From a virus (taxonomy: Duplodnaviria; Caudoviricetes): a stretch of 48,518 nt of DNA. Positions 10,098-31,687 of the stretch are shown here, piece after piece. The first letter of the stretch is position 1; every line of letters begins with the position of its first letter. Where the stretch lies: positions 1 to 48,518 of IMG/VR virus record IMGVR_UViG_3300032290_000667. The stretch is one strand, 5' to 3'. A program made the position numbers and the translations under genes. Below the pieces are notes generated by a model. The model was not told the origin of the DNA. It saw nothing but the letters and a program-made list of their open reading frames with translations, and ran no database searches.

Positions 10098-10161
10098 TAT
10101 ATTGGTTTATATTGGTGTGGTAAATTGCAAATATAATATTTATATATTACTATGCAAATTT

Positions 10162-14827: not shown

Positions 14828-15046
14828 TTAATCGTTAAATCCTAGGTGCTTGTATACTTTGTCACATAAGCCCTCATAAATGCTAGGGGCAACTAAGCCG
14901 TTGTTCCATGCATCTGAGTCTTGCTTGAGGCTTTGTCTAGTCATGTCACTGATGGTCAATAGGCGCTCTCTAAGAATAGCCAATTCCATAAGGTCTAAGT
15001 CTTTTAATAAAGATTTGATTGCTTGGTCGTTTGTTTTTTGTTTCAT
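14828..15046 (-). CDS. hypothetical early protein (first gene of the leftward operon)
   Basis: 72 aa ORF flanked by tRNA-like elements. Confidence 0.7.
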   Translation of the reverse strand: MKQKTNDQAIKSLLKDLDLMELAILRERLLTISDMTRQSLKQDSDAWNNGLVAPSIYEGLCDKVYKHLGFND

Positions 15047-15066
15047 GATATTGTTTGATTAAAGTT

Positions 15067-15134
15067 TGGTAGACATGAGAAGGAGTCGAACCCTCTAGCA
15101 ATCCCTTGTGGGCAATTGCTGACCATCCATGCTA
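15067..15134 (-). ncRNA. tRNA-like element A with an extra hairpin
   Basis: TAGCATG-GATGGTC-AGCAAT(TGCCCACAAGGG)ATTGCT-AGAGGG-TTCGACT-CCTTCT-CATGTCT-A-CCA. Confidence 0.75.
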
Positions 15135-15214
15135 TATTAGTCGTTGTTAGTGCCTTCGCTTCGGGGTTATATCATGCCCTACTACTTAGTGCTGTCGCTG
15201 TCGCTTTCGCTGTA

Positions 15215-15249
15215 TGTCAAAGAACTCTTCGCCTCTAGAATCGCTTCTA
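15215..15249 (-). promoter_or_regulatory. boxB-like hairpin plus boxA antitermination site
   Basis: TAGAA-GCGA-TTCTA GNRA hairpin followed by AGTTCTTTGACA (rrn boxA TGCTCTTTAACA-like). Confidence 0.65.
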
Positions 15250-15724
15250 TTTTACACCCTACTTGGAAGTCAAGACTATGCACAGCACAATCGCTGTCTT
15301 TTCTGTCCGCTCAACTTGTTCCCCTCGCTCGCTTCACAGCGTGCTTTTCGGTCGGCATGGCCACCCACTTATTCGCAACATATGTAAACATATGAGGCTT
15401 TCGATGGTACGGGTATGATTATGATAAGTAACCGCCCGTTAGTGTGTCAGAACTGAGGGCAAAACAAATGCATAAAAATCATATAAAAAAATATTTGTGA
15501 AAAATAATTTGTAACTAACTGAAAATCAAGCCCGTTTTTTTCATTTTATTGGGTTTGAAGCATTTTAAAATTGTAAGTTCTTAGTCTCCCAAGGGATTAA
15601 GGCCTAAAAACAGCCTAAAATTGAGGGTAAAAAAACACCCCAAAAATATAAAAAATAGCCGTTTTGAAAAAATCCCAACAAAACCCCTAGTAAATGTGTT
15701 CAAAAACTCCGCAAACCCTTGATT

Positions 15725-16369
15725 TTACAAGGCCTCTAGGTCATTTAGCCATGAATTGCGAGTAAAATCCTTGTAAACCCTTGTAAACATTAGGTTAAAC
15801 TCATCAAAAATCTTATCAGTTTCACGAGTTAAACAATAGTACTTAGCATTAAGCATATGAGAAGGGACTATAAGCCCTGTCAAATCGTGTACCTCAGACG
15901 CTGAGAGGTGCCTAAGAAAGCCAAGGCTAACCAATTCCTTAAACACCTTATAAAAATGCTTCTTATTGCCCGTGTGTTTCATTAACTGAGAGGCCTTAAA
16001 CACATGGCTTAACTGCGCTAACACCCAACAATTGACAAGCATATCGAACTGAAGGTCATTCAAGCCCCTAAGCCCTACAACCTTCTCCCGTGCATCCTTG
16101 AGATGATTGTATGCTATTCCTATGAGATATCCGAAGGCTAGAGACTCTTTGCCATAGCGTATGCCCACCTCAACCCTATTCATGTGTTCTCGTTGCCTAG
16201 AAGCCTCCACACGAACCCTAGGGCTATTCATGATAAGGGATAAGGGGATAAGCGATAGGAGGGCATCAGCATCCAATTGACTCAGAGGGCTTGTAATATC
16301 AGCGGAGGGCTTAAACTTTCCAAGGTGTTCAGATAGATAGGCCAATTGTTTGGTGCTTCGTTTTCCCAT
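15725..16369 (-). CDS. hypothetical protein with winged-helix-like C-terminus
   Basis: FYKVFKELVSLGFLR...YYCLTRETDKIF; promoter TATATTTG at 16391-16398 (minus). Confidence 0.55.
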   Translation of the reverse strand: MGKRSTKQLAYLSEHLGKFKPSADITSPLSQLDADALLSLIPLSLIMNSPRVRVEASRQREHMNRVEVGIRYGKESLAFGYLIGIAYNHLKDAREKVVGLRGLNDLQFDMLVNCWVLAQLSHVFKASQLMKHTGNKKHFYKVFKELVSLGFLRHLSASEVHDLTGLIVPSHMLNAKYYCLTRETDKIFDEFNLMFTRVYKDFTRNSWLNDLEAL

Positions 16370-16597
16370 TGTTTCTTGGTGTATTGCTTGCAAATATACG
16401 ATAAAGGCATAAGAGATGTCCGTTTTTTTGGCTGATTTTGAGGCATGGAGAAAATAAGGGGAGGGAAACCATATTCTTTCACTTAAAACACCTAGATTTC
16501 ATGCGCTTTTGCGCCTTTTCCCCTTCCAAGATGCCCTTCCCTCAAGGGATGCAAGGCATAACCCTTTGGAGATTGGCTTGTGCCAAGGCTTTCACTT

Positions 16598-16625
16598 CTG
16601 TCTTATAATAAACATTATGTTAACC
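16598..16625 (+). other. XerCD dif-like recombination site
   Basis: CTGTCTTATAA-TAAACA-TTATGTTAACC: 11-6-11 layout, XerD arm 9/11 identical to TTATGTTAAAT. Confidence 0.75.
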
Positions 16626-17077
16626 AAGGGCTTTCTGATTCCGTTTGCCTCCCCTCCCCTACCCTACTGCCACAAGGCTTTCGCTTTGCTTTGGGCTTGT
16701 TTGTGTAAGGTATTCAAATGCAAGGCTTGAGTATGCATCGCATTTGCAAAACTGCAAAGGGGTGGGTGCTATCGTAACTTGTTGATTATCATGGGGTTAA
16801 AATGTAGGCGGATCATCTATGTCACCCCTCCAACACAGTTAAACCACCCCACCAGCACACTTAGATCTAGGTTATTGCATTCGGTACATACCCCTTTTGT
16901 GAATAACTTAGGTGCTAATAATCCAGCATAGGCTTTCCTTGCCACACGGTGGAGACAACTTTTTGCCAAATGGGCTGTTGATAACTTAAATGGGGTGGGT
17001 GGGTTATGTAAAACAGGGGGTGGGTGTAGTAAAAAGGGGTGTATGGTATACGTAACTGCTTGATTATCATGCGAAAT

Positions 17078-17124
17078 TTGCTATGTTTTGCTTCCGTTTG
17101 CTTTCATTTGCTCACGTTTGCTTC
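17078..17124 (+). repeat. second iteron-like array (5 x TTTGCT, 10-bp period)
   Basis: TTTGCT at 17078, 17088, 17098, 17108 and 17118, followed by an AT-rich tract and a promoter. Confidence 0.75.
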
Positions 17125-17185
17125 ACATAAATTATTTTTAGATAGTATAGTATATGTTGGATTTTTAATATATATTTGCTCCCAC

Positions 17186-17386
17186 ATGAAAACAACAGAA
17201 CAGATTATTGGTATGATGGATGAAATTAAGTTTGATCTACAGGAGATAGAGGGCTTGATTAAAAAGCATCTTGACAATCCAGGAAAGGCTGACATGGTTA
17301 GCAATGCTTACTTTGATGCACTGGTTGAGGCTAAGGTAGTTGCTGAAGAGAAACTACAACTTCTTAATTGGGTTATTGAGCTATGA
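17186..17386 (+). CDS. hypothetical protein (first gene of the rightward arm)
   Basis: ATG 7 nt after TATATTTG (17171-17178). Confidence 0.65.
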   Translation: MKTTEQIIGMMDEIKFDLQEIEGLIKKHLDNPGKADMVSNAYFDALVEAKVVAEEKLQLLNWVIEL

Positions 17387-23396: not shown

Positions 23397-25575
23397 GGAG
23401 CTAGAGATTTACAAGAAGTATAAAAAGTTTGGTATTAAGCCAAAGGTGCTTGAGGGCTACAAAAAGTCCGAGAAGTTTATATTGTTTAATGAGGAGGATC
23501 CTGACCTGGACACTATAACCGTTCAAATGCCAGAGGAGCCAGACTGGAATCTTATAGCAGGATTTGGTAAAAAAGCTGAGGATCAACGATTTGAGCGCAC
23601 ACAAATACCTGTAAAATTATTTGAGCTACAGAACGCTCAGGACGAAGATGGTTTTTTCTTGACTCAAGATGAAATTTGGGCCAAGATAGAGGAGCAACCC
23701 GAATACTACAAAAACGAAATACAGTTTATAAAGCAAGAATGGCTTAGGCGTGTCTATGGTCATTGGTTTTTTAACAACGGTGTGCCTACATATATAGATG
23801 GGTGGCACTATATGTATTTAAACTACTACGAACTTGACATTGGGCTACCAGAATATCGTGATAGAGATAGGCGTTTTTTCCATTTTGCTAGATTTTGCTA
23901 CAATGATCCTAAGTGTTATGGGTTTATTTACCCTAAACATCGACGTGAGGGTGCAACTTACAAGACTAGCTGTATACATTACTGTATTATAAGCCTATTA
24001 ATTAAGGCAAGGGGTGGTATTCAGTCAATGACGGACGACTCTGGTCGAGACGTGTTCCAAAAACACATTGTTGATCCATGGAGATCAATGCCATTCTTCT
24101 TCAAACCTAACCACAACGGCGGCGATGACCCAAAGGCTATCCTAGCATTTAGAGCAAGCTCATCCAGGGGTAAGGCTGGTGTGAAATACAAGTCAGGCAA
24201 GTCGCTAGGTAGCGAGATTAGTTTCCGTGCAAGTGTAGAAACAGCATATGACGGAACAAAGCTATACTTCTACCATCATGAAGAGGTTGGTAAAGCTGTA
24301 AATGTAGACATAAACAAAAGATGGGAGGTTGTGCAGTTAACATTGTCAACGGGTGCTGGTGGTAAAATCCACGGTTTCAGCATACACACGTCTACGGTGG
24401 GTGAAATGGAGCTTGGCGGTGGTGAGCAGTTTAGAGATTTGTGCGAAAACTCACAGTATGGAAAACGAAACGCCAACGGTCAGACTGCTACAGGATTATA
24501 TGTACTATTTATTCCAGCTTGGGATGGTCTAGAGGGTTATGTGGACAGCTATGGCATGAGTGTAATTGACACGCCAAACGAACAGCAAGCAAAAGAGATA
24601 GGAACATCTATAGGAGCCAGGGAGTTTATCTTAAACACAATAGAATACCTAAAGACTCTGCCTAAAAAAGATAAGTTACTCCAATTCCAACGAGAACACC
24701 CAACAACTTACAGAGGTTGTTTCAGGTCTAACTCAAAAGATCCGTTCTTTAACATAGCCAAGATAGAAGACAGGCTAGATGAGATTAGAAAAGACAAAAC
24801 AGCTGTAACTAGAGGTAACTTTGAGTGGATTGGTACACCTTATCAAACTGGGGTCAAGTTTATTCCACACGAAAACGGTAGGTTTGAGATGTCTTACCAA
24901 CTGTCGCCAGACAAAGCCAACAAAGTTATTTGGGATCAGTCACTTGAGTCGTTTGTAGCCAACAATATAATGTATTGCGCTGGAGCTGACCCGTTTAAAG
25001 CCAATACAACCAAAGGCAAAAAACGATCAAACGGTGCAGGCGCTGTATTCTGGGGTCATGACATTATGATTGACTCATACGAAAAGCCACTAGAAGAATG
25101 GGAGAGTTGTAGGTTTGTTTGCGTCTACTCATTTAGGCCAGACACCAAGGAAGAGTACGGAGACGACATGATTAAGATGTGCGTGTATTGGGGTTGTCCA
25201 ATGTTCCCAGAAACAAACGTACCTTTTGTAAGAGAACACTTTGAAAAAAATGGTTATAGCGGAATGTTGATACACAAGTTTTCAAATGGTAAATACGATA
25301 ATGCAGGTGGTGCCGATACAACCGAAAAGGTAAAGCAAAAAATATTTCAACTTTACCAAACGCACATTGAGAGACACGCTCACAAAGAAAAGCACGCTCA
25401 ACTATTGCAGGAAGTGCGTGATATCAAAGGCGTTGACGATATGACCAACTGGGACTTGTTTACAGCTGGGGGTTATGCCATGCTAGGCATAGACAACTAT
25501 CTGCCAGACGTACAAAAACAACAAAAACAAGATAACGAAATTAACTATACCTTTGTGGAAACCTTTTATTATTAA
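23389..25575 (+). CDS. terL: terminase large subunit
   Basis: KHRREGATY Walker A variant, YHHEEVGK Walker B, TST coupling motif, GADP nuclease motif, position before portal. Confidence 0.92.
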   Translation: MSKELEIYKKYKKFGIKPKVLEGYKKSEKFILFNEEDPDLDTITVQMPEEPDWNLIAGFGKKAEDQRFERTQIPVKLFELQNAQDEDGFFLTQDEIWAKIEEQPEYYKNEIQFIKQEWLRRVYGHWFFNNGVPTYIDGWHYMYLNYYELDIGLPEYRDRDRRFFHFARFCYNDPKCYGFIYPKHRREGATYKTSCIHYCIISLLIKARGGIQSMTDDSGRDVFQKHIVDPWRSMPFFFKPNHNGGDDPKAILAFRASSSRGKAGVKYKSGKSLGSEISFRASVETAYDGTKLYFYHHEEVGKAVNVDINKRWEVVQLTLSTGAGGKIHGFSIHTSTVGEMELGGGEQFRDLCENSQYGKRNANGQTATGLYVLFIPAWDGLEGYVDSYGMSVIDTPNEQQAKEIGTSIGAREFILNTIEYLKTLPKKDKLLQFQREHPTTYRGCFRSNSKDPFFNIAKIEDRLDEIRKDKTAVTRGNFEWIGTPYQTGVKFIPHENGRFEMSYQLSPDKANKVIWDQSLESFVANNIMYCAGADPFKANTTKGKKRSNGAGAVFWGHDIMIDSYEKPLEEWESCRFVCVYSFRPDTKEEYGDDMIKMCVYWGCPMFPETNVPFVREHFEKNGYSGMLIHKFSNGKYDNAGGADTTEKVKQKIFQLYQTHIERHAHKEKHAQLLQEVRDIKGVDDMTNWDLFTAGGYAMLGIDNYLPDVQKQQKQDNEINYTFVETFYY

Positions 25576-28088
25576 TGCAAAATTTTGTCGATAATAGCAC
25601 GCCAAATCTTTACAATTTTCCAGCCCACGATGTGGACCCTTCTATTAAATTGAAAAAAGACTGGAATGTTCAGTACTGCCAAGCGATCCATTCATTATAC
25701 AGAAACAATCTGACTGGTATTAATTACTCAGATGTTGATATGTTCGCTAGATTCAGAGCGTACGGTAACGGTAACCAAGATAAGCTCCAATACATGGACT
25801 GGTTGGGTATAACAAAAAGACCAACGCCATCATTGCCTACACAAGCAACTGGTGTTAGTGGTCCAACCCAACAACCTTCTGACTTTGTTAGACAAGGTTT
25901 CATGAACTTAAACTGGGAGATCTTATCTGTTGCCCCAAATTTTAAAAACGTAATCTTAGGAACATTTGAAGACATTGAACACGACATTTATGCTGACGGT
26001 GTAGACGAGAAATCATCTGCTGAAAGAGAAGAGGCTAAGTGGATGTTGTGGATGGAAAGACAAATGAACGAGCAGATTGAAGAGGTTAAAAAAGCTGTTG
26101 GTTTAAAAACTCAAAGACCAGACTACATTCCAGAAACAATGCAAGAATTGCAAATGTTTGCGTCTTTAGGTGGTTTTAGATTAAAGAGTGAAATATCTAT
26201 TGAGGAAGCATTAAGATATACTAAGTATATATCTGAATGGAAAGAAATTAAGCGTAAAATATTTGAAGACTTGTATGAGTTAGGTGTAGCCGTTACTAAA
26301 GATTATGTTTGCCCACAAACTCAAAAAATTAAGGTAAGATATTGTGACCCAGCTTTGTGTGTTATTCCATATGTACAACAAACAGAGTTTGCTAATATGC
26401 CATTTGCTGGTGAATACATCTTCTATACAATTGCAGAAATCAGAGCGTTAAACAATCCTGACGGAACAGCTACATTTACAGAAGAAGAGTTGCAAGAAAT
26501 TGCGGCTAAGTCAGTTAACCAATACAACAACCCTGCAATTATCAACAACTGGTACATTGATCAATTTGGTCGTTACGAGTATGATACATTCAGAGTGTGT
26601 GTTATGGACGCTGAATATAAATCAGATGATTTTAAGTTTACAACTGAAAGAATTAACTCTAAAGGTGAAAAAATCGTTCACCAAGATGAGTATGGTAAAG
26701 TAAGAACTGGTGACAAGAGAAAAACTCATATCACTAAGACACTTATGGTTTACAAATGTAAGTGGATTGTAGGAACTGAGTTTGCTTGGGATTACGGTCA
26801 TCAATTTGACATTCCAAGACCAACTCCTTCACAAGCTAACTTAAGCTACCACGCCTATAGATTAAAGGGCGGCAGTATGATTAAGAGAATGATTCCTTTG
26901 TTGGATAGCATTCAATTATCTTGGTTAAAATTACAAAACGCAAAAGCAAAAGCAGCCCCAAGTGGATTAGCAATTGAGTATGGATCGTTATTAAATATAA
27001 GTATTGGTAATAATAAATTATCACCACTAGAAGTACTTAAAATTAGAAACCAAACTGGTGATATTCTATATCAAGCTACTACACATAGAACATATATGCC
27101 TAGTCAAACTAACTACAAACCTATCCAAGAGTTACAAGGTGGTTTGGGTGTACAAGGCCAGGAGTTCTTACAGTTAATATCTCACGATATTGATATGATC
27201 AGACAGATTATAGGTATTAATAGAATAGCTGACGCTAGCTCGCCTGTAAATGATCAGCTGGTAGGTGTATCAGAGATGTCACTTCAAGCTACATCTACGA
27301 CGCTAAAACCAATGTATTCTGCCTATATTACATTAAAGGAAAGAGTGTTTAGAAATGCAGCTCTAAGAATACAATTAATGGTTAAGTTTAGCGGTGAGTA
27401 TGAATTGAGTTATTTTAAGGCTTTAGGCAGCGCTATAACACAAACATTAAAAATTGGTTCTGAGATCAACAATGCAATGTTTGGTATTAGAATAGAAGCT
27501 AAGCCAGACGCTCAAGAAAAGCAAAACATTATCAATGCAGCTCTTGAAAGCTTGAGAGTGGGTAGACAAGGTACACCATTATTAGGCTACGCTGACTACT
27601 TGATGGTTCAAGACTTTGTATCTAAAGGACAAATTAAGTGGGCTAAGGCTTACATAGCAAATAAAGAGCAACAGACCTTGAAAAGAGTAGAACAGGAGAA
27701 GCAACAAGCTATCGAAGCTCAAGGTCAACAACAACAAATGTTGCAACAACAAAAAGGTGAGCAAGATCAAATGCTATCTCAAATGGAAATTGATAAGATC
27801 AAAGTTGAAAACGAAGAAAAGAGAAAAACTATTGAGCTTCAACACTATTTAAAGATGGATGAGATCAGACTTCAAATGGGTATGAAGGTAGACGAACAAA
27901 TGACCTTCAAATCAATTGAGATGCAGCACCAACATGATATGATGGAGAAACAAACCGAACAGGCAATGGTACAACAAGCAATGATGCAGCAGCAACAAGC
28001 TATGCAACAACAGCAAGGTGCTCCGCAAGGACAACCACCACAACCGCCTCAAGGTCAAGAAGTTCCACCAACTAATATTCCAGCATAA
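25575..28088 (+). CDS. portal protein (crAss-like)
   Basis: 837 aa after terL; RAYGNGNQ, MNLNW, IIGINRIADAS motifs; Q-rich coiled-coil tail. Confidence 0.88.
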   Translation: MQNFVDNSTPNLYNFPAHDVDPSIKLKKDWNVQYCQAIHSLYRNNLTGINYSDVDMFARFRAYGNGNQDKLQYMDWLGITKRPTPSLPTQATGVSGPTQQPSDFVRQGFMNLNWEILSVAPNFKNVILGTFEDIEHDIYADGVDEKSSAEREEAKWMLWMERQMNEQIEEVKKAVGLKTQRPDYIPETMQELQMFASLGGFRLKSEISIEEALRYTKYISEWKEIKRKIFEDLYELGVAVTKDYVCPQTQKIKVRYCDPALCVIPYVQQTEFANMPFAGEYIFYTIAEIRALNNPDGTATFTEEELQEIAAKSVNQYNNPAIINNWYIDQFGRYEYDTFRVCVMDAEYKSDDFKFTTERINSKGEKIVHQDEYGKVRTGDKRKTHITKTLMVYKCKWIVGTEFAWDYGHQFDIPRPTPSQANLSYHAYRLKGGSMIKRMIPLLDSIQLSWLKLQNAKAKAAPSGLAIEYGSLLNISIGNNKLSPLEVLKIRNQTGDILYQATTHRTYMPSQTNYKPIQELQGGLGVQGQEFLQLISHDIDMIRQIIGINRIADASSPVNDQLVGVSEMSLQATSTTLKPMYSAYITLKERVFRNAALRIQLMVKFSGEYELSYFKALGSAITQTLKIGSEINNAMFGIRIEAKPDAQEKQNIINAALESLRVGRQGTPLLGYADYLMVQDFVSKGQIKWAKAYIANKEQQTLKRVEQEKQQAIEAQGQQQQMLQQQKGEQDQMLSQMEIDKIKVENEEKRKTIELQHYLKMDEIRLQMGMKVDEQMTFKSIEMQHQHDMMEKQTEQAMVQQAMMQQQQAMQQQQGAPQGQPPQPPQGQEVPPTNIPA

Positions 28089-28090
28089 TC

Positions 28091-28243
28091 ATGGCACCTA
28101 AAGGTAAAAAATCATCAGCAGTAGCATCTACTCTACACAAAGAAAAACCTAAGAAAAGACGCAAAAACATACACGCTAAAACAAAGTGTTCTAAAACTAA
28201 GACTAGTAAGAACTATGTAAAGCTTAGCCGAGGTCAAGGTTAA
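28091..28243 (+). CDS. small basic protein ending RGQG (not in ORF track)
   Basis: MAPKGKKSS...KNYVKLSRGQG, 50 aa, very Lys-rich. Confidence 0.7.
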   Translation: MAPKGKKSSAVASTLHKEKPKKRRKNIHAKTKCSKTKTSKNYVKLSRGQG

Positions 28244-28295
28244 AAAAAATACAAATTTTATTTGCAGTGTAATATTTTTTTATTATACTTGCAAC

Positions 28296-28636
28296 ACATC
28301 TGCAAAGGGAAGGCGGTTTGAAGACTTAGCTAACCCTTTGTTAGATGATTAAAAACTTGGTTCTTGTCCCTACACCAAGAGTAGTTGTGCAGGCGTGCTA
28401 CAAAACAAAATGGGGGTAAAACAAATTGTTCAGTTCATAGCGAAAAGCACCTTTTGAGGCGTAAGGTCTTCGGTACTAGCAAACACAATGTACAGCCGAT
28501 AGCTAAAGTGGAGTTTATTGAATCCGTTGTTTGGCCACCGAACGAGCATACTGCAAACGAGAAAACAGATTAAAGAAATGGTATACCTTCGGTATATCTT
28601 TTAATAATCATTGTTTGCTTGTAATAGACCCCTCAT
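28296..28636 (+). ncRNA. putative structured RNA upstream of HNH gene
   Basis: TTTG (28261) + TATACTTG (28284) promoter followed by several nested helices. Confidence 0.6.
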
Positions 28637-28652
28637 GCACTGACATGAAAAA

Positions 28653-28988
28653 ATGGGTAAAAAGAGTCAAGAATATATCGACTATCTAAAGAGCCCTGAG
28701 TGGCAAGAAAAAAAAGAACAAGTTTTTAGGGAAAGAGGTCGCTGCTGTGAAAACTGTGGCAATACAGAAAGACTCTTTGTTCATCACATAACATTTAAAA
28801 GACTATACAACGAAAACACAGAGGATTTGTGTGTACTATGTTATACGTGCAACAAACAAATGTGGGCTGATATAAAAAAGGCTGAGTATATTGCTGAACG
28901 CAAAAAGAATAAAGAACAAGTCTTAATAGATAAAAACCTAATTAAAGTTAATGGCGTTTGGGTTGACGCAAAACCTCCAACTATTTAA
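28653..28988 (+). CDS. HNH endonuclease
   Basis: YIDYLKSPEW...CENCG...VHHIT...DLCVLCYTC. Confidence 0.85.
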   Translation: MGKKSQEYIDYLKSPEWQEKKEQVFRERGRCCENCGNTERLFVHHITFKRLYNENTEDLCVLCYTCNKQMWADIKKAEYIAERKKNKEQVLIDKNLIKVNGVWVDAKPPTI

Positions 28989-29064
28989 TAAAGAGCAAAT
29001 TATTTCACTTAAAAAAAACAACTTAGTGAAAAATTTACTTACTTTGCATCCAAATACAATATTT

Positions 29065-30234
29065 ATGACAGGAAATATGGACCAAATGAAGGCTGACTTT
29101 CTTAGCGGTTTAGGTGTAGAAGCCAATACACCAGAGCCAAAAGAAACTCCAGCTTCAGAACAAACACCAGTTGATACAGGTGTTGAACCACAAGAGCCAG
29201 TAGAACCACAGGCTCCAATTAGCTCAGAATCAAACGACAAAGAATCCGAATCAATCGACAGATTGCAATTGATTAACGAAACCTTTGGAACTAACTTTGC
29301 GTCTATGGACGATGTTGAATCTTTTAAAGGGGTTCTATCAGAGTTACCAGTTCTTCAAGATGCGAAGCAAAAGTATGACGAGATCAAAGGTCAGTCTGTA
29401 GCTAAGTTCCACTCAAAGAATATTGAGGAGATCAACAACTTTGCACTACAAACTGGTATTGAAGATCCTGCCTTTGTAAAACAAGTAAAACAGTTTTCAT
29501 TGGCTGATAAAAAAGATCCTGTTGAGGCATTAGCAATTGCCGAGATACTAAAAGACCCATCATTAGCAGACAAGAAAGATTTGTTAATGAAGTCAATTAG
29601 AAGGGAGTATAAAACATCCTACAACGAAGACCTATATGGGGATGACTTGGAGGAAGCTCAAGAGAGAGCACAAATGGAGCAATTCAGATTAGACCGTAAG
29701 GCTGCTGAGGCGACCAAATTAATTAGCGAAACTATGGACAAAGTTCAAAAGGCTGGTCCTGTGTTGACGGTGAACGACACTATACAACAAAAACAAGAGC
29801 TCAAGGCGCAATGGGCTAATATTGTTGAGTCTAACACTGATCAAATATTTGGGAAAGTTCCTGTTCAAGTACCGAAGGGAAAGGATAAGAATGGCCAAGA
29901 CATATTTGAGACAATAGACTACATAGAGTTATCACCAGCTGAAGCAAAAGAGCAAGCTCAATTGGTAGTGAATCGATTGGTAAATTCTGGACTGGAAATT
30001 AACCAAGAGAATCTAATCAATGCAGTAAGCGAGCAGTATGACATGATTAAAGCCAAGAATCTGTATCAGATTGTTGGAAAGGTTATGCAGCGAGCCGAGA
30101 GCGCTACGAAGCTAAAGCTAGAGAAGGAGATTTCAAATCCTTCCGCCCTAAAGGTAGAGACACCTGCTGCTGGCAAACAACAGAAAACCGCTTCAGACCA
30201 AATCTTGGAGAAGTGGGAAAAGTTGTTTAAGTAG
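29065..30234 (+). CDS. scaffolding-like protein
   Basis: Acidic, helical, Pro/Glu-rich N-terminus, directly upstream of the capsid gene. Confidence 0.65.
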   Translation: MTGNMDQMKADFLSGLGVEANTPEPKETPASEQTPVDTGVEPQEPVEPQAPISSESNDKESESIDRLQLINETFGTNFASMDDVESFKGVLSELPVLQDAKQKYDEIKGQSVAKFHSKNIEEINNFALQTGIEDPAFVKQVKQFSLADKKDPVEALAIAEILKDPSLADKKDLLMKSIRREYKTSYNEDLYGDDLEEAQERAQMEQFRLDRKAAEATKLISETMDKVQKAGPVLTVNDTIQQKQELKAQWANIVESNTDQIFGKVPVQVPKGKDKNGQDIFETIDYIELSPAEAKEQAQLVVNRLVNSGLEINQENLINAVSEQYDMIKAKNLYQIVGKVMQRAESATKLKLEKEISNPSALKVETPAAGKQQKTASDQILEKWEKLFK

Positions 30235-30289: not shown

Positions 30290-31687
30290 ATGGCAAACGT
30301 AGCAGCGCAGTATCAGAGTAATTATGTATCTGCATATGATGTACACAAACCAGACGTATTGAGCAAAATGTTCAACCGTTATGGTGATCAAGGATCTTCT
30401 TGGTTCTTAACTTTAGAAAAATTAGGCTTTGTTAAGCCTGTGGGAGCAACTAGCTACTCACACTATGAAAACGAATTGAAGAACCCAACTTTCAATTCTT
30501 TAGGTGCGGTTTCAAGTACTGGTACAGCTCCAGCTTTGACTATCACCGTAACTTTAAGCCCGTCTAACTTAGACAGCTTTAACAACTTCTACCCACGTTT
30601 AAATGATATCACTTACTTCAAAGGAGGTCAATTAGGTATCATTACAGCTATCAACGTAACAACTCCAACAGCTCCAGTTTTAACTATCACACAAGTTAAT
30701 ACATGGACAGGTGGTCTTAGCGTTGCTGCTGGTGAAGAAATCTCTTTGGTATCTAACGCTTTCTCTGAAGGTAGCGATCAACCAAAAGGTATCATGCCAG
30801 GTGCTGCTAAACGTACAAACTACACTCAAATCATGAAAGAAACTTTGGCTGTAACAGGTACAGAGTTAACTAACCAAACTTGGTTTGATGGTTGGATTGA
30901 AGTTCCAGGTAGCGTAAACGGTTCTGAGCAAATTGCTAGCGGTAACAGCTGGTACAACTTGAACTGGATGGACATGGAATGGAGAATTGGCAAACAAATC
31001 TCTGGTGCGTTATTGTTTGGTGAAACTACAGTTGGTACTATCACAGACCCTGTAACTGGTTTACCAATCAGAACAACTAACGGTTTAATCCCTACAATCA
31101 AATCTTTAGGTAACACTGATACTTATGTACCAGGTGCATTCTCAGTAACTGATTTCGACGCTTATGGTCGTATCTTAGATAGAGAATATGCTGGTGAGTA
31201 CGTAATGTCATTAGTATCTAAATCTTTCAGCGATGAAATCGAAAACACAATGGTTGCTTACTTAGCTAACACTAACATTATCTATGAAATCGAACAACAA
31301 TTAGGTTCTAGATTTGGTGTTGATGGTAAATCAATCTCTGTAGATTTCAGCTACTTGAAGAAATCAAACAGAACATTTATGTTCAAACGTATGATGGAGT
31401 TCTCTAACAGACAAACTTTCGGTATCAACGGTTCAATCACTGACGGTATGGGTGTATTCTTACCTATGAACAAAGTGAAAGACGCTAAGAGTGGTCAAAT
31501 GTTAGACAACATCGGTGCACGTTACAAAAACTTAAACGGTTACTCTCGTAAGATGGAAGTATGGTCAGTAAATGGTGCTGGACCAGGCATGAAAGTTAGC
31601 TCAGTGGACGTAAACAAATCGTTCATCAGAACTGACATGGGTGCTCACATCATGGGTGCAAACCAAATGATCTTGGTAACTACCTAA
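30290..31687 (+). CDS. major capsid protein
   Basis: 465 aa, strong codon bias, FSEGS...NYTQIMKE..VTGTE and LLFGE...TNGLIP motifs, followed by a terminator. Confidence 0.88.
   Translation: MANVAAQYQSNYVSAYDVHKPDVLSKMFNRYGDQGSSWFLTLEKLGFVKPVGATSYSHYENELKNPTFNSLGAVSSTGTAPALTITVTLSPSNLDSFNNFYPRLNDITYFKGGQLGIITAINVTTPTAPVLTITQVNTWTGGLSVAAGEEISLVSNAFSEGSDQPKGIMPGAAKRTNYTQIMKETLAVTGTELTNQTWFDGWIEVPGSVNGSEQIASGNSWYNLNWMDMEWRIGKQISGALLFGETTVGTITDPVTGLPIRTTNGLIPTIKSLGNTDTYVPGAFSVTDFDAYGRILDREYAGEYVMSLVSKSFSDEIENTMVAYLANTNIIYEIEQQLGSRFGVDGKSISVDFSYLKKSNRTFMFKRMMEFSNRQTFGINGSITDGMGVFLPMNKVKDAKSGQMLDNIGARYKNLNGYSRKMEVWSVNGAGPGMKVSSVDVNKSFIRTDMGAHIMGANQMILVTT

Follow-up and report, generated by a model that had tools for sequence, protein, structure and literature searches.

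A likely structured, uncatalogued phage RNA and an adjoining, probably mobile HNH endonuclease gene between portal and putative scaffold genes

When a small HNH endonuclease gene follows a stretch of apparently non-coding DNA within a phage head operon, do the two form one RNA–protein system, or do they simply adjoin? The question is raised by positions 28261–28988 of a 48.5-kb virus record (48,518 nt, completeness about 70%), all of which we call the window, where an initial annotation proposed a promoter-driven structured RNA coupled to a small HNH nuclease. Together with the portal gene, genes for the terminase (phrog_6681) and the capsid protein (phrog_13704), recognized by profile match, flank the site. 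The nearest cultured terminases are 27–31% identical and belong to phages of Flavobacterium, Cellulophaga and related phages. The most likely verdict is that this Bacteroidota-type phage carries an RNA missing from the catalogues, next to which lies the gene of an ordinary mobile nuclease.

The features of the locus are collected in Table 1. A capsid-protein search gave four viral and five metagenome loci for comparison, L006 being the same contig as L001. The description of the head operon as otherwise gapless needs some qualification, as a conserved basic ORF of 50 aa precedes the RNA. This ORF is kept in L001 and L007, is 47 aa long and diverged in L002, and is apparently missing from L003 and L004. 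Between it and the HNH ORF lie 409 nt without a real gene. Family searches with the 50-aa and the 389-aa proteins returned no match.

Table 1 Features of the portal–scaffold interval and its flanks (window coordinates)
Feature	Position	Strand	Remarks
Portal gene	25575..28088	+	phrog_6547, E 7.7e-57; left flank of the RNA
50-aa basic Lys/Arg-rich ORF	28091..28243	+	Ends in RGQG; directly 3' of portal
Bacteroidota-type promoter-like motif	28261..28291	+	−33 TTTG at 28261, 19 nt, −7 TATACTTG at 28284; putative activity
Non-coding, likely structured RNA	28295..28645	+	~350 nt, probable ends; HNH+ and HNH− alleles ~90% identical
Hairpin A	28297..28347	+	8-bp core GCAAAGGG/CCCTTTGT predicted in 3/3 alleles
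Hairpin B	28356..28379	+	CTTGGT/ACCAAG, invariant 12-nt loop
Hairpin C	28381..28401	+	Stem kept; between alleles the loop has 4 substitutions and 1 insertion
62-codon ORF, not a gene	28385..28573	+	L001 and L007 lack the start and have a disrupted frame
Core domain	28455..28635	+	Closing helix 28455-59/28631-35 stacked on 28465-69/28626-30
Hairpin F, then TTTT	28580..28602	+	Terminator-like in HNH+ allele only; HNH− tail is TATTC
HNH+-only segment	28646..28975	+	~330 bp; empty allele has 12–15 unrelated nt instead
Zinc-finger HNH endonuclease gene	28653..28988	+	111 aa; CxxC..VHH..CxxC; no own promoter seen
Second promoter-like element	29003..29046	+	TTACTTTG at 29039, before putative scaffold gene, with 7-bp inverted repeat
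389-aa gene, putative scaffold	29065..30234	+	In the portal–capsid interval; scaffold by position only

The Bacteroidota −7 consensus is TAnnTTTG, from which the −7 element TATACTTG differs by one mismatch. The whole promoter-like motif was found where the initial annotation had placed it, is identical in the HNH-less L001 and L007, and is 80% alike over 35 nt to an intergenic motif at 10159–10125 of the same phage. From sequence we infer that the segment is promoter-driven and transcribed as an RNA. None of the RNA sequencing runs listed contained the stretch 28261–28988, and runs X18 and X19, guessed to be RNA and probably DNA, were excluded as expression evidence. In every close relative the second promoter-like motif immediately precedes the scaffold gene, and its −7-like part is also found in L002 and L003. 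An operator-like 7-bp inverted repeat (29003–29031) lies across the −33 region of this scaffold promoter-like motif.

The region had been called non-coding, with purifying selection on the 62-codon ORF named as the sign that would speak against this; that ORF is broken in both close relatives and a homologue search with it gave no match. The helices initially listed fared less evenly. All 62 of their pairs are standard pairs at the places given, but the long nested helix and the GTGG/CCAC pairing are poorly supported in folding. Folding the core in isolation gives the long nested helix as the MFE structure, whereas in the full-length ensemble the AGCAAA..CAATG arm of this helix scarcely pairs with the opposite arm (0.17 of 13 nt). 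A second segment, also upstream, competes for the 3' strand of the helix. Taken as a duplex, the helix does not go beyond chance, being equalled by 25/60 shuffles of the window sequence and 5/60 of L001. The GTGG/CCAC pairing has near-zero probability in the ensemble, and a pairing of ATGGGGG with CCCTCAT rivals the better supported closing helix of the core, whose inner pairing is ambiguous between two alternatives, 28474–90/28609–23 on the one hand and 28470–74/28495–99 with an extended hairpin F on the other. Folding z-scores were modest, at −1.44 for 28290–28660, −1.78, −2.10 and −1.33 for the whole length of three alleles (weaker on the minus strand), and −2.56 for the core at 28455–28645 (2/200 shuffles).

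Since these helices had been drawn from the window sequence alone, the alleles of L001 and L007 provide a fair test of them. Between the window and L001, paired bases account for 6 of the changed positions where 10.8 would be expected (23/344 circular shifts as low), three of these 6 being C>U changes opposite G, and 3 pairs are broken against 7.8 expected (p 0.017), one break being an alignment artefact at a TT bulge. The comparison with L007 (3 broken pairs against 8.4 expected, p 0.009) is not independent of that with L001. Pair 28456:28634 of the outer MFE helix, likewise predicted from the window alone, reads G-C, A-U and G-U across the three alleles, and a pairing-preserving change of this kind occurs in just 3 of 330 possible helices of at least 5 bp. 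Positions 28460:28630, C-C in the extended register, are A-U in L007, so that a pairing-preserving change also arises among HNH-less alleles. A formal covariation control, uninformative with three rows and just two main RNA alleles, had 336/500 shuffles reach the observed score. A looser test, with helices added after the alleles were known, gave stronger numbers that we do not rely on. As most of the differences between alleles leave the predicted helices intact, the RNA is likely folded; we consider a functional folded RNA at this locus quite probable, and the comparison supports a constrained, non-coding structured element.

Which RNA this might be was approached through catalogues and pattern searches. 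Rfam gave no match at the gathering score, with none to HEARO at E ≤ 10, and Rfam 15 (tRNA, tmRNA, group I/II intron, 6S, ribozymes) and ARAGORN found nothing at the RNA locus. BLAST of the region against cultured phages and plasmids yielded no meaningful match. An exact pattern search for homologues recovered the L001 contig only; none of the 119 loci recovered with a loose pattern matched the RNA HMM. Two genome matches were rejected as chance matches within coding DNA, and HDV-like, hairpin and pistol ribozyme folds were dropped because by eye their cores were missing. Searching the phage genome for antisense matches to the RNA gave none, and no 7–9-mer suited to multi-target antisense pairing was enriched in 69 gene-start regions (best 30/200 shuffles). 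In the literature searched the RNA is undescribed, and the searched files of the PMC10690425 supplements showed no motif, although other files there may contain a short candidate.

Comparison of the same slot in relatives places the RNA in a wider pattern. The slot of L002–L004 (capsid 80–85% identical) contains a different uncatalogued RNA together with promoter-hairpin units, and in L008, L010, Elemovirus and MW202828 it lacks an RNA, with 3–57 nt from portal to scaffold in distant relatives. The window RNA is therefore accessory and replaceable. For an uncatalogued phage element of ~350 nt, the point of interest is that unrelated structured RNAs replace one another in this head-operon slot, which suggests interchangeable RNA accessories under selection. 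In L002 (4100–4450) and L003 (4180–4460), two short promoter-hairpin-terminator units were observed 5' of the L002-type RNA in the same slot.

Members of the L002-type RNA family are found at L002:4475–4720, L003:4483–4725, L011:1500–1745 (Flavobacterium phage FL-1) and in L132–L180. The plan of this widespread family is a conserved two-stem hairpin motif followed by a 7–10-bp helix of varying sequence that closes a 100–190-nt arm, and then a purine-rich segment. A pattern search gave 49 viral loci, 30 of them distinct, from which 5 judged to be chance were dropped to leave 25. A strong long-range helix directly after the motif is present in 18 of these 25, as against 12% of 99 control positions. 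The genes that follow are varied (helicase, thymidylate synthase, scaffold), and Rfam has no match to the family. By eye, the window RNA resembles these RNAs in layout, with a closing helix, a long arm and a similar last 15 nt. Membership was nonetheless rejected: the window RNA lacks the hairpin motif, HMMs were negative, and the covariance model, which is biased by the pattern used to collect its members, gave no match with filters off. On one phage contig in this set of loci (L134:42–153) we observed a SAM-I/IV riboswitch-like match at the gathering score.

GOLLD RNA occurs with HNH and tRNA arrays. GOLLD and ROOL resemble the window RNA as promoter-led non-coding phage elements with nested long-range helices and orphan function; the window RNA differs in having no Rfam match, a much weaker folding signal and a distribution limited to one narrow clade.

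The HNH ORF starts 16 nt past position 28636, as first described, and the statement that its product lacks RuvC holds for this 111-aa protein, which has the HNH core only. Its predicted structure (pLDDT 89.9) consists of the core, a long helix and a beta-hairpin, with no further domain. H44, H45 and the four Cys are kept. Position 67 is N in all 9 members of its cluster and H in 157/161 family rows and in a 74%-identical cluster; position 71, H in the family, is W in both clusters. From this sequence the enzyme may be partly decayed (H67N), although HNN variants of small HNH enzymes exist according to a passage of PMC3592412. The family is large, with 15,795 clusters at E ≤ 0.001, of which only two are close (9 and 4 members, one 74% identical). 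Profile matches in the PDB are to the HNH domains of IscB (9k2z, E 3e-6) and Cas5-HNH and to the phage HNH 5h0m (E 1e-4). The IscB match is confined to its HNH. No PF14239 match to a PLMP/RRXRR domain appeared at E ≤ 0.1, and the HNH-family match begins at residue 4–6.

If homologous HNH genes shared a conserved upstream structure, as had been suggested, it should recur at family loci. The window RNA was found upstream at 0 of 43 such loci (40 viral and 3 cultured, E ≤ 10, four pairs being near-duplicates), an outcome that the initial annotation had itself named as counting against its reading; it applies to the family rather than to its closest cluster, because the relatives tested are just 29–47% identical and the 74%-identical cluster lies outside the set. 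At 24 of the 40 viral loci the gene begins no more than 70 nt from the ORF before it (at least 70 aa), and 3 have an upstream gap of at least 300 nt, with 2 not measurable. In the 74%-identical cluster an in-frame ATG lies six codons upstream; the window likewise has an ATG at −18, inside the 3' end of the RNA, which hints that this cluster may also follow a window-type RNA. Four records were searched, among them one 47% complete that has the RNA, and none contains an HNH relative elsewhere.

The search for empty sites in related phages, proposed with the initial annotation, succeeded in L001, L007 and a contig of run X13. L001 (DNA 97% identical) and L007 align with the window up to 28641–28645 and resume at 28976, keeping the promoter and RNA and missing the HNH gene. 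Neither target-site duplication nor terminal inverted repeat was seen at the junctions of the HNH+-only segment. Run X13 contains an HNH− contig (depth 12) that joins 28645 to 28985 through 15 other letters, and also an HNH+ contig (depth 6), so that both alleles are present in one sample; one contig of run X2 carries the HNH+ form. The window-type RNA accompanies the HNH gene in the window, X2 and X13 records 3/5, and the other RNA allele stands without HNH in L001, L007 and X13 record 6. This linkage holds in all contigs seen, although in X13 it rests in part on depth. Over 28298–28645 the HNH+ allele is ~10% different from that of L001, as compared with 0–5% in most flanking 100-nt bins, and the RNAs of L001 and L007 are nearly identical. 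L007, otherwise 95% identical, also has mosaic patches of 10–30% divergence in the scaffold and capsid genes (window 29100–29200 and 30400–30800). As its coding genes are mosaic too, the linked haplotype may reflect ordinary recombination and is no proof of homing. The absence of the HNH gene from close relatives that keep the RNA stretch makes a separate selfish passenger its most likely status. Gain and loss of HNH are not polarised, because relatives outside the clade have neither RNA nor HNH. This side of the locus is ordinary phage biology, and filled and empty alleles in one population make a clean natural test pair.

We favor, with a probability of about 0.58, the reading that the slot between two promoter-like motifs holds an accessory folded small RNA, and that the HNH gene, a passenger separable from it, relies on the transcript of this RNA and would propagate through nicks made in HNH-less alleles. 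Host RNA polymerase would start near 28297 and produce an RNA of ~300–350 nt that would end at ~28600 or ~28640. The activity of this RNA would depend on its fold and would most likely be exerted in trans, on a host or phage protein to which it binds; action in trans with a protein partner is suggested by the lack of an antisense target and by the downstream gene having its own promoter-like motif. The HNH gene would have entered at the 3' end of the RNA and, being promoterless, would owe its low expression to transcripts that run through the terminator-like hairpin, a feature of the HNH+ allele only. Computed accessibility of the HNH start is unchanged by RNA length, so gating of its translation by the RNA is not supported. 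During mixed infection, the enzyme would nick or cut within or close to the RNA gene of the empty allele; the ensuing repair would copy HNH along with ~350 bp of its upstream RNA allele, as for T4 mobE and segB, which would give rise to the linked RNA–HNH haplotype.

Homing enzymes typically have a separate DNA-binding domain, and the window HNH has none, which counts against the homing reading. The HNH gene does show homing-type present/absent alleles at a homologous intergenic site. The T4 genes mobE (an HNH nickase) and segB are alike in being intergenic, present or absent in close relatives and promoterless behind another transcript, as passages of PMC2790892, PMC2330249 and PMC2988022 describe, with terminator-like control. 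They also have linked flanking polymorphism, to which the ~10% divergent tract beside the window HNH may correspond. In these accounts mobE is a promoterless nicking enzyme under terminator control (PMC2790892), and segB spreads tRNA genes, carrying neighboring RNA genes along (PMC2330249). Homing endonuclease genes near structural genes are described in PMC10448857, and nick-driven conversion as a route of spread is also treated in PMC12724721. The window HNH departs from mobE and segB in its 111-aa size, its short helical and beta-hairpin tail with no recognized DNA-binding domain, its H67N change and its orphan RNA neighbor, and its own cleavage and homing are putative.

A fairly unlikely alternative is that the segment is a cis-acting leader (attenuator, processing or antitermination) of the scaffold-capsid transcript, or weakly constrained intergenic DNA. 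No terminator was seen 3' of 28640 in the HNH− alleles, as a leader would have it, and the competing pairings for the 3' strand, the modest z-scores and a long duplex within the range of shuffles fit either version. A leader is hard to reconcile with the second promoter-like motif directly 5' of the scaffold gene in all close relatives and with a 330-bp insertion tolerated between RNA and gene, and both versions conflict with allele changes that avoid the helices.

It is unlikely that RNA and HNH form one co-evolved module, whether a ribonucleoprotein or an RNA-gated or RNA-guided nickase, with the HNH-less alleles as deletion derivatives. The linkage of RNA allele and HNH in all contigs seen agrees with this, as do the possibly similar RNA 3' end before the 74%-identical cluster and the relatedness of the HNH core to those of IscB and Cas5-HNH. 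The HNH+ RNA tail also pairs with upstream RNA at −20.1 kcal/mol (5/300 shuffles), compared with −15.0 and −13.4 for HNH− alleles. Against these points, the fold persists under structural constraint in three HNH-less alleles, the count of family loci with the RNA is zero, and the records searched hold no HNH relative elsewhere. The guide-like variable segment that the initial annotation suggested looking for did not emerge: there is no hypervariable segment, and no 13-nt target match besides two isolated 13-mers in about 93 kb. Neither a dedicated RNA–HNH ribonucleoprotein nor an RNA-guided nickase is supported. HEARO/OMEGA systems (IscB, IshB) share with the locus a structured non-coding segment 5' of an HNH ORF and a related HNH core. 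Parts of PMC9755519 and PMC10734217 define HEARO/IscB by RuvC, HNH and PLMP, and IshB by PLMP and HNH at ~180 aa. The window protein differs in lacking RuvC, PLMP/RRXRR and a TAM domain; its locus has no Rfam HEARO match and no guide, the RNA is found where the ORF is missing, and the ORF family where the RNA is missing. Were the RNA truly a partner of the 111-aa enzyme, no RNA-associated HNH system would be smaller, although comparison among relatives argues against such a partnership. A more elaborate version appears distinctly unlikely, namely a two-part mobile module whose RNA would bind or gate the 111-aa nuclease and which would invade promoter-bounded head-operon slots and displace other RNA modules, HNH-less forms being non-autonomous derivatives.

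A replication primer or R-loop-forming origin RNA of the ColE1 kind is very improbable: a G-run and a 3'-end motif resemble ColE1 RNA II by eye and some L002-type RNAs precede helicase or nucleotide genes, but a covariance model and three HMMs gave no match to the ColE1 primer region, no plasmid matched, and helicase and initiator-like genes lie elsewhere in the phage (by eye). Equally remote is a packaging role, as a pRNA-like RNA or a gp74-like terminase cofactor, which the initial annotation had entertained for the RNA: the site adjoins the portal and small phage HNH enzymes often adjoin terminase genes (a portion of PMC3592412), but sister phages whose capsid protein is 100% identical do without the HNH gene, and related head operons have 3–57 nt at the site or swap in an unrelated RNA. 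A prohead RNA of the phi29 type, which every related phage would need at its portal, was rejected with the RNA missing from related head operons. Zinc-ribbon nickases of the N.phiGamma/HK97 gp74 type (PDB 5h0m) are similar to the window HNH in size, two CxxC pairs and the HH catalytic pair, as set out in a section of PMC3592412; the window HNH differs in lying beside neither terminase nor cos site and in being dispensable and polymorphic in the population.

Elsewhere in the window, a tRNA-Thr(TGT) gene is located at 2500–2573 on the minus strand. Between divergent gene blocks, positions 15046–17190 comprise ~2 kb without a convincing gene, which is likely a control region or a genome-end or origin region.
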